Origin: a virus
Taxonomy: Duplodnaviria; Heunggongvirae; Uroviricota; Caudoviricetes
Reading direction: 5' to 3' (one strand)
DNA: 12,108 nucleotides
IMG/VR virus record: IMGVR_UViG_2737471846_000027
Location: 1 to 12,108 of that record
Within the stretch, counting starts at the first letter, position 1. Each line of letters opens with the position of its first letter. The position numbers were made by a program, and so were the translations under genes. The notes under the pieces were generated by a model. That model had not been told where the DNA came from. It saw only the letters and a list, made by a program, of their open reading frames with translations, and did not search any database. Shown one piece after another: positions 2,725-3,492 of this stretch.

Positions 2725-2950
2725 CGTCGGGTCCTTCCTGGAATTATGGCCCGTTACGGGGCGGCGACCTCGCGGTTTTTATCTGTTTATGAAAATTTTC
2801 CGGCAAAAGTCAGATCCGTTCTTCTTCTCTGTAACAGACTGTTTAAAAATGAAAATATTAAAAAAAGAAAGGATCTGACACGAGGCATTTTAGCCAGAAA
2901 ATGTCATTATCAGATCCTTTCTCATTTTTGTTCAATAATTGCGCGTCTGT
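2725..2950 (+). other. Lambda-family cos site, copy 1 (cosQ-like, cosN GGGCGGCGACCT at 2759–2770, lambda-like cosB)
   Basis: Bases 2759–2800 read GGGCGGCGACCTCGCGGTTTTTATCTGTTTATGAAAATTTTCCGG, near-identical to the lambda left end as I recall it. Patchy lambda similarity continues about 180 bp through the cosB region (CCGTTCTTCTTC, AAAAGAAAGGA, CCTTTCTC). It is oriented rightward, convergent with terS. Confidence 0.8.
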
Positions 2951-3492
2951 TACTCGCCTTTCTTCTGTAGCAACTTTTCCGGTACGTTTCCGGTTGTTTC
3001 GTTCAGGTAATCAGCCAGTATCTGTGGGAGATTGTCGGCAACTCTGGCACTGGCATTACAGGCTTTAACCACTTCCCTTTTAAGCCCATCCAGCATAGCG
3101 GTGGTAATGTGTGGGAAGCTCCTTTGCATAGTAAGCGGGAGGCTGTCCATGATTGAAGAAATCTGACTTGCCAGTTTTGAAAGCGCGTACATGCAAAACT
3201 CTGTATCAATCACGTCACCGCGTTCGCGCTCGTTTTTAAGTTCCTGCGCCTCTGCCTGTGCTGTCAGCAATCTGATCCTGACTCGTAGGAGTTCATCATC
3301 ATCAATCTCGTCCGTTTCGTTTGTAATCTGGCTGATTGCATTGTTAACCCGATTATCTATTACACTGGCGACATCATAAAACGCCTCACGGCCCTTACGC
3401 TCGACGGGAATCACTCCCCACTTATCGAACGCAGTGGCGCTTACTCGGCAGCTTTTCGCCATGGTTTTTTTATTCATCAGGTGCGATTTCAT
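2950..3492 (-). CDS. terS: Terminase small subunit, lambda Nu1 family
   Basis: Translation aligns with lambda Nu1 over its length as I recall it (LTAQAEAQELKNERERGDVIDTEFCMYALSKLASQISSIMDSLPLTMQRSFP versus lambda LTRAQADAQELKNARDSAEVVETAFCTFVLSRIAGEIASILDGLPLSVQRRFP). The ORF track starts it at GTG 3504; I prefer ATG 3492 (MKSHLMNKK...), which has a GGGGG Shine-Dalgarno 6 nt upstream. Confidence 0.9.
   Translation of the reverse strand: MKSHLMNKKTMAKSCRVSATAFDKWGVIPVERKGREAFYDVASVIDNRVNNAISQITNETDEIDDDELLRVRIRLLTAQAEAQELKNERERGDVIDTEFCMYALSKLASQISSIMDSLPLTMQRSFPHITTAMLDGLKREVVKACNASARVADNLPQILADYLNETTGNVPEKLLQKKGE

Follow-up and report, generated by a model that had tools for sequence, protein, structure and literature searches.

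A Nu1-family small terminase and its cosB between inverted cos sites in a phage-inducible chromosomal island of Escherichia coli

The first 12,108 nucleotides of the IMG/VR virus record IMGVR_UViG_2737471846_000027 (Caudoviricetes; this whole stretch is hereafter the window) hold a phage-inducible chromosomal island (PICI) of Escherichia coli, and within it a gene, terS, for a small terminase subunit (TerS) that lies beside a cos site of its own. We suspect, with a probability of roughly 55%, that this satellite TerS reads a private cosB and delivers the large terminase subunit (TerL) of a helper phage to the island's lambda-type cosN. Recognition of the DNA is supported by the covariation of the DNA-binding domain (DBD) of TerS with the adjacent cosB across islands. 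Recruitment of TerL is what we infer from the family membership of the protein, the retention and constraint of its C-terminus and the lack of a TerL in the island.

A mosaic small terminase and its cosB

The gene, the modules of its product and the adjacent (proximal) cos site are as follows, with offsets counted in the cos register of lambda and N15, in which the cos sites were placed.

2950..3492, minus strand: terS, a Nu1-family small terminase of 180 residues (ATG at 3492, stop at 2950-2952)
3322..3492, minus strand: N-terminal DBD, 57% identical to N15 gp1 (residues 1-50) and 36% to lambda
3118..3300, minus strand: central helical region, residues 65-125, with an invariant AQAxAQELKN junction
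2953..3117, minus strand: island-lineage C-terminal domain, residues 126-180, with a 15-residue tail, TTGNVPEKLLQKKGE
3520..3595, minus strand: proximal cosB
3520-3535, minus strand: inverted element CACCAACACACCAACC in cosB (inverted repeat I13), +103 to +118
3568-3595, minus strand: G/T-rich element GGGTTGGTGGTGGTGGTTTTGTTGTTCG at the R3 position of cosB, +43 to +70
3626..3637, minus strand: cosN of the proximal cos, GGGCGGCGACCT, the lambda cohesive-end sequence
3655..3669, minus strand: cosQ of the proximal cos, ACGGGTCCTTTCCGG, identical to lambda and N15

An earlier note on this DNA, made from the letters alone, had read the open reading frame (ORF) at 2950-3492 as a Nu1-like TerS. Matches to Pfam PF07471 (E=2e-23), to PHROG phrog_57 (E=5.5e-52, residues 1-174) and, by hhalign with a profile of close relatives, to lambda Nu1 (probability 99.9%, E=1.3e-31, residues 6-166 against 3-180) bear this out and identify the product as a full-length Nu1-family TerS (PF07471); the motif that the note quoted, MAKSCRVSATAFDKWG, is present. 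A PDB sequence search with the protein alone gave no match, and fragments of lambda TerS were reached by profile searches only. The start codon at 3492 is supported by the homologs, all of which start five residues before NKK, and the RefSeq pipeline PGAP calls the identical gene in a 99.9%-identical relative (L004). The cassette with terS and the capsid operon are collinear in the window and in 487 complete genomes of E. coli; a 3' half of the island type is present in 817 of 5426 such genomes, including O157:H7 and other Shiga toxin-producing strains. Whereas the phage homologs all have an adjacent TerL gene, the overlapping terS-terL arrangement of phages is found neither in the window nor beside any island homolog, as expected for a satellite.

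The DBD is of the phage N15 type. The recognition helices are ATAFDKWG in the island protein, VQAFDKWG in N15 gp1 and RTIQNWQE in lambda Nu1. A profile restricted to N15-type sequences still reaches lambda TerS residues 1-98 (6HN7_B, E=0.0065). In an AlphaFold2 model of moderate confidence (mean predicted local distance difference test score, pLDDT, of 68), the chain begins with a strand, two helices and a beta hairpin; a long third helix and then four more long helices follow. The DBD part of the model (strand 5-7, helices 8-14 and 21-25, hairpin 31-40, helix 41-57; pLDDT 69-78) has the winged-helix arrangement of the Nu1 DBD. The predicted TM-score is 0.29, and the global fold is therefore not usable; a Foldseek search of the model against the PDB returned nothing significant, with weak matches to MerR-type winged helices (best E=0.5). 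The idea that the DBD is a private invention of the satellite does not hold, given the 57% identity to N15 and a cosB that resembles N15 R3.

The earlier note had also described a C-terminal half close to lambda Nu1 and a much more diverged N-terminus. Identity to lambda Nu1 is 36% over residues 1-50, 12% over the linker (51-75), 52% over 76-125 and 32% over 126-165. In lambda, the residues equivalent to this last 40-residue stretch are the segment that contacts the large subunit gpA, so that the part claimed as conserved is no closer to lambda than the DBD is. A strong contrast between the two ends fails against lambda but does exist in comparison with sister islands (30% in the DBD, 80-88% in the C-terminal part) and with N15 (57% in the DBD, 32% in the last 40 residues).

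Conservation in the family is highest in the central region (50-62% identity to phage TerS proteins), which in lambda Nu1 is the region of self-association. Among 26 aligned relatives, the DBDs fall into two classes and the C-termini into two subtypes or more; all four pairings occur, joined at AQAxAQELKN, and the central region that contains this motif is, from the alignment, the recombination joint of the two modules. The C-terminal domain aligns with the TerL-binding end of Nu1 and is 88% identical to that of island L001 and 60% to that of island L017. In L001, whose C-terminal part as a whole is 80-88% identical, the N-terminal domain is of the lambda/21 type and only 30% identical. The DBDs of sister islands are nearly identical to those of phage 21-type helper TerS proteins; in L017, residues 1-101 are about 96% identical to TerS of CFT073 phage 4, the natural helper of the island EcCICFT073, and are followed by an island-type C-terminus. 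Given this chimera and the combinations of modules, islands take their DNA-binding heads from phages and retain their own C-terminal domain.

All recovered genomic contexts of the island-type C-terminal domain are islands with capsid E, decoration D and primase genes nearby, and among these contexts no phage or prophage TerS with such a C-terminus stands beside a TerL. The nearest true prophage genes reach only about 70% identity at the DNA level, in the central part only. A HMMER search with residues 100-180 against 1.84 billion representative proteins gave three clusters at 63-72% identity (one 194-residue island-type protein and two fragments), with all others at or below 48%. By these searches, the C-terminal domain is a lineage found only in islands. 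Its ratio of nonsynonymous to synonymous substitution rates (dN/dS) among islands is 0.05-0.25, compared with 0.08-0.13 for the capsid gene, and it is under purifying selection.

The proximal cos has the lambda layout, with terS just downstream of cosN-cosB (its ATG lies at +146) and an element at the R3 position, about +45 to +70; in N15, R3 is GAGGTTGTTGTTT at +48 to +60 (PMC9026076). The repeats that the earlier note had placed next to the gene do exist; they are G/T-rich and lie in the cosB upstream of terS, and the register alignment confirms that terS sits beside its own cosN-cosB with repeats unlike the lambda R elements. Exact copies of the 8-mer GGTTGGTG number only two in the window, an inverted pair inside cosB at 3520-3527 (plus) and 3587-3594 (minus). 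Allowing one mismatch, the window has 12 copies against 9.2 expected, no significant enrichment, and the weight of the motif comes only from the two exact copies, their position and their conservation across islands. A probe of IMG/VR with the proximal cosB found two provirus-type contigs from isolate genomes, which are uninformative on virion DNA ends.

Compared with lambda gpNu1 (structures of its DBD: 1J9I and 6HN7_B), the island protein has the full length of the family, with a winged-helix DBD, central helices and a C-terminal helical segment, and its gene likewise lies downstream of cosQ-cosN-cosB with an identical cosN. It differs in the lack of an adjacent TerL, in its cosB elements, in a shorter linker and in the extra 15-residue tail. 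N15 gp1 has the closest phage DBD (57%), with the AFDKWG helix and the same short wing and linker, and the G/T-rich element of the island at the R3 position resembles N15 R3, GGTTGTTGTTT. However, the C-terminal half of N15 gp1 is lambda-like (78%), compared with 32% for the last 40 residues of the island protein; the island cosB has an extra inverted element, and N15 owns its TerL.

The class of the DBD equals the class of the proximal cosB in every island with a locatable cos. N15-type heads pair with GGTGGTGG...TGTTGTT in the window, in L010 (at another chromosomal site) and in L011 and L012, an N15-type lineage that is only 58% identical in TerS but has the same cosB motif class. Heads of the 21 type (L001, L017 and L019) pair with CATGTC(G/A)GT, the element class of phage 4. 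RppA of EcCICFT073 pairs with CACCACCACCAC, a third cosB class.

The islands L011-L014, on Enterobacteriaceae contigs, are embedded in their helpers, inserted in capsid gene E of a lambdoid prophage, with the helper terS more than 10 kb from the island. They carry genes for FRG-domain and DUF3892 accessory proteins after the N15-type terS, and no copy of this helper-embedded island was found in complete E. coli genomes.

The second cos site and the rppA slot

The terS gene is bracketed by an inverted repeat, each arm of which is a cos site with GGGCGGCGACCT.

2728..2803 and 3593..3668: left and right arms of inverted repeat I1 (76 nt, 82% complementary), bracketing terS
2727..2770, plus strand: distal cos, convergent with terS and pointing into its 3' end
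2727-2741, plus strand: distal cosQ, degenerate, TCGGGTCCTTCCTGG
2759-2770, plus strand: distal cosN, intact
2811..2922, plus strand: distal cosB, in the lambda-style order R3-R2-R1, with elements of the Gifsy-1 type
2811-2822 (plus), 2866-2877 (minus) and 2911-2922 (plus): the CAGATCCGTTCT elements of the distal cosB

The distal cosB holds three CAGATCC(G/T)TTCT elements against 0.06 expected, a count that 0 of 200 shuffles reached, and these elements match the cosB of Gifsy-1. The same type of cosB is found in 652 complete E. coli genomes and adjoins terS-terL in E. coli prophages; in strain p11A, for instance, it lies (L029, 3470-3640) beside a Gifsy-type TerS and a phage 4-type TerL. An intact distal cos is found in islands at the phoQ locus only; L017 has a degenerate copy, and L010 and the helper-embedded islands have none. 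Given that both arms have a cosN, cutting at both would leave the same overhang at the two ends of the middle fragment.

The cassette between the arms also varies in orientation, being inverted in L001 and L009, while a related 21-type cassette is collinear in L017. Comparison of L001 (2727-3750) with the window (2728-3668) is instructive: the backbones are 99.7-100% identical (100% in the capsid gene), and the cassettes are different and in opposite orientation. We considered and rejected a simple inversion, because the two terS genes reach only 88-92% identity in the half that they share and are unrelated in the DBD half; the cassette of L001 was thus replaced in the opposite orientation and not merely flipped. 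The replacement is a recent one. An incoming cassette can recombine in one orientation or the other, since each arm is an inverted copy of its partner.

The rppA gene of EcCICFT073, which encodes 144 residues, is likewise enclosed by two cos sites in inverted orientation (at 2559 and 3309 of L015). Their arms share 95.7% and 89% identity with the arms in the window, the lower value being that of the rppA-distal arm. The two genes are thus flanked by homologous inverted arms, and the terS of the window fills the slot of rppA. Both cos sites of EcCICFT073 are functional, and experiments showed that packaging is directed by RppA and cos1, the site proximal to the gene (PMC6739421, PMC6092414). 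Deletion of cos2 raises transfer of the island by lambda (PMC6092414), and either site can drive transfer of a plasmid (PMC6739421).

The terS product is nevertheless not an Rpp protein, a candidate that we rejected because it has 180 residues and a complete C-terminal region and shares with Rpp the genomic slot alone. RppA and RppC (PMC6739421) resemble the window system in their island family, in the phoQ locus, in the slot between homologous inverted cos arms with a private cosB upstream, and in the presumed role of redirecting helper packaging to the island cos. They differ in that they have 139-154 residues, lack a TerL-binding C-terminus and heterodimerise with the helper TerS. PDB searches with the island TerS matched the TerS chain of 6HN7 and no Rpp chain.

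Among database variants of the cassette, some fuse the N-terminus of the decoration protein to the C-terminal domain of TerS, and others fuse TerS to the 93-residue ORF that follows, with the distal cos deleted. Variants that are fused or have a frameshifted C-terminus are found among P0124, P0086, P0082, P0087, P0089 and P0094.

The island around the cassette

The other features of the window are these.

1-1461: phoQ, which opens the window
2413-2694, minus strand: conserved 93-residue ORF (phrog_1561), just past the distal cos
3675..3694, minus strand: intrinsic-terminator-like hairpin between the gpD-like gene and cosQ
3766..5168, minus strand: head-gene block upstream of the cassette (capsid E and decoration D homologs)
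3766-4101, minus strand: decoration-protein D homolog (Pfam PF02924 at 2.1e-17)
4113-5168, minus strand: major capsid E homolog (Pfam PF03864 at 3.4e-51)
6617-8371, minus strand: D5-type primase
10879-12108, minus strand: tyrosine integrase, which closes the island and the window

The island is a Gram-negative PICI of E. coli. It has the gene set of these elements (int, alpA, primase, capsid homolog and terS), a size near 10 kb and a dedicated attachment (att) site. It is about 10.7 kb long and occupies the phoQ-roxA site, which is that of EcCICFT073 in strain CFT073. Leftward from the integrase, all on the minus strand, are alpA, small Icd-like and unknown genes, a DUF4222 gene, the D5-type primase, a gene for a single-stranded DNA-binding protein (SSB), a 68-residue ORF, capsid E, decoration D, terS and the 93-residue ORF. 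The capsid region is 91% identical to that of EcCICFT073, the order of the E and D homologs matches c1499/c1500 of that island (PMC6092414), and the 93-residue ORF has a counterpart at the equal position there. For EcCICFT073, helper-driven induction, replication and high-frequency transfer were demonstrated (PMC6092414). RefSeq relatives at the phoQ-roxA site are annotated alike, and their "terminase small subunit" begins at the same start codon. No genes for TerL, portal, tail or lysis were found among the ORFs of the window (ORF list and Pfam).

Two other assignments were discarded. The element is not a capsid-forming PICI (cf-PICI), which would have a TerL, portal, protease and head-tail connectors of its own, since the island encodes only the capsid E and decoration D homologs and TerS, and EcCIEDL933 and EcCIMP1 were rejected as islands of the same kind.

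Several features of the window lie outside the cassette. The terminator-like hairpin AAAAAGCCGGATTTCTCCGGCCTGT is present in two copies, at 3671-3696 after the decoration gene and at 5582-5607 after the SSB gene. A direct-repeat array with units of 26-43 nt spaced 87-133 bp apart occupies 2058-2420, where no genes lie, between the end of the island and the 93-residue ORF. The palindrome AATGGTAATTACCATGT occurs twice, at 9609-9625 and 9639-9655, 30 bp apart in a divergent intergenic region, and has the look of an operator. A 314-residue ORF at 9324-10268 (minus strand) overlaps several small genes annotated on both strands in relatives and is probably not a real gene. Positions 9754-10279 are only 76% identical to L001, which makes this a variable accessory region. 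A search of the window against Rfam gave no match.

Routes by which the island TerS may act

If the island TerS works as a terminase subunit in its own right, a lambdoid helper would induce the island, which would replicate as concatemers. The N15-type winged-helix domain would bind the G/T-rich cosB elements at the R3 position, downstream of the proximal cosN, and the central and C-terminal helices would bring the TerL of the helper to that cosN. Starting at the proximal cos, packaging would proceed through terS and round the island until it meets the next proximal cos, which has an intact cosQ. TerS and cosB form one exchangeable specificity cassette between the inverted cos arms; in sister islands that slot is filled either by a TerS of the 21 type and a cosB of matching type or by RppA, again with a private cosB. 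The distal, convergent cos of Gifsy-1 specificity might be used by the terminase of a suitable prophage with no help from an island protein. The earlier description of the gene as a satellite TerS is apt as to the satellite gene set and the island's own cos, but not as to a lambda-like TerL-contact segment. Recruitment of a helper TerL is plausible given the purifying selection and the retained C-terminal signature of the family; similarity to lambda is no demonstration of it.

There is precedent in the Staphylococcus aureus pathogenicity islands (SaPIs), in which redirection of the helper terminase by a satellite TerS is established (PMC6092414, PMC10085698). The likeness is that of a satellite small terminase pairing with a helper TerL, as we presume for the island studied here (background in PMC6092414). 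The SaPI proteins belong to another TerS family, serve headful (pac) and not cos packaging, act beside a separate inhibitor (Ppi) and have a function proven experimentally.

Several observations weigh against direct recruitment of TerL to a private cos. The C-terminal 45 residues of TerS and the N-terminal 60 of TerL vary together in lambdoid phages, in three types: lambda/N15; 21/phage 4/Gifsy-1; and PhiR5_1/JE86 (junctions in L002, L003, L007, L015 and L026). Phage 4 and PhiR5_1, for instance, have TerL proteins 92% identical over residues 61-400 and 50% over the first 60, and TerS C-termini 36% identical. The TerL-contact segment of the island protein is 31-33% identical to lambda/N15, 27-31% to 21/phage 4 and 47-50% to the PhiR5_1 types, and given the covariation in phages, binding of the TerL of a common helper is not something that similarity can tell. 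The helper-like DBD of L017 (about 96%) suggests that a private DNA specificity is not universal in the family. The terminator-like hairpin parts terS from the capsid operon, and a search for a sigma-70-like promoter upstream of terS found none. In addition, E. coli PICIs that encode TerS (IHE3034 and 18098) showed no transfer from their native strains in 2018 (PMC6092414).

The main rival reading, possible though we think it unlikely, is that the island TerS follows a route like that of Rpp, co-assembling with the helper TerS and not binding the helper TerL itself. Contact would be made through the central region (in 21-type islands also through the near-identical DBD), and in the mixed oligomer the island DBDs would read the island cosB and the helper C-termini would carry TerL, so that the helper cos would be starved. 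Such a route would fit the conservation of the central region (50-62% to phage TerS, with the invariant AQAxAQELKN), an extreme C-terminus that fits no phage TerL-partner type, and the near-identity of L017 residues 1-101 (about 96%) to phage 4 TerS. It would also fit the slot, which is that of RppA, a protein that works in this way and needs the helper TerS (PMC6739421, PMC9026076); a review by Murialdo and Feiss proposed that Rpp, being without the TerL-binding C-terminus, relies on the helper TerS (PMC9026076). However, Rpp has lost the C-terminal 30-40 residues (PMC9026076), and the island TerS keeps them, adds a tail and is constrained there, which argues that its C-terminus has a function of its own. 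PDB sequence and profile searches detected no similarity to Rpp either.

We consider it improbable that the protein is purely an interference factor, which would titrate the helper TerL or poison helper TerS oligomers and so block helper packaging while the island DNA is packaged from the distal, phage-type cos by the unmodified helper terminase. The distal cos would suit this role in being of complete phage type, with R elements that match the cosB adjoining terS-terL in E. coli prophages, and both cos sites of EcCICFT073 drive plasmid transfer (PMC6739421). Yet many islands that have terS and a proximal cos (L010, L011-L014 and L017) lack a distal cos or have a degenerate one, the cosQ of the window copy is degenerate, and deletion of cos2 in EcCICFT073 raised transfer by lambda (PMC6092414). 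The tight covariation of DBD and proximal cosB would also be needless for a pure inhibitor. That terS is an inert fragment left by a decayed lambdoid prophage is very improbable: although frameshifted and fused variants exist in databases (P0082, P0087, P0089, P0094, P0086 and P0124), the ORF is intact and collinear in the 487 complete genomes, with the island-type 3' half in 817. The dN/dS of 0.05-0.25, the intact PICI gene set and the conserved position beside a cognate cosB in distant lineages likewise speak against decay.

We tentatively suggest that packaging specificity in these islands is a plug-in cassette between inverted cos sites that can be swapped or flipped, its slot holding either RppA or a TerS, with the matching cosB. 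The shared, satellite-only C-terminal domain might capture the TerL of several types of helper or out-compete the helper TerS, and the second cos might offer a route for the native terminase of a different helper.

Part of this is already known. Some Gram-negative PICIs were reported in 2018 to encode a terS homolog (PMC6092414), SatelliteFinder counts the small terminase among the core components of PICIs (PMC10085698), TerS-encoding E. coli PICIs are catalogued and RefSeq names this gene. The IHE3034 and 18098 islands are of the same element category as the island in the window, and neither the report on them nor that on SatelliteFinder gives anatomy or mechanism. A literature search brought up no published dissection of the Nu1-type TerS encoded by cos PICIs, of the cos sites that go with it or of its partner. 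What may be new is that terS fills a slot equivalent to that of rppA, that DBD and cosB are exchanged as modules, that the C-terminal domain is confined to islands and that the second cos is of the phage type.

Among enterobacterial islands of the cos type, Rpp is, to our knowledge, the only route that is understood. Islands that encode TerS are no rarer than Rpp islands and have been catalogued but not studied. If their TerS engages TerL directly, the TerS strategy of the SaPIs would have its counterpart among cos elements, and one and the same slot would accept either of two solutions, Rpp or TerS. With its island-only C-terminal domain, the protein provides a way into the interface between TerS and TerL, which is poorly defined, and comparison of this domain with the three phage types of TerS C-terminus and TerL N-terminus gives concrete chimeras. 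The modular pairing of DBD and cosB could also serve the design of orthogonal cos packaging systems for DNA delivery.

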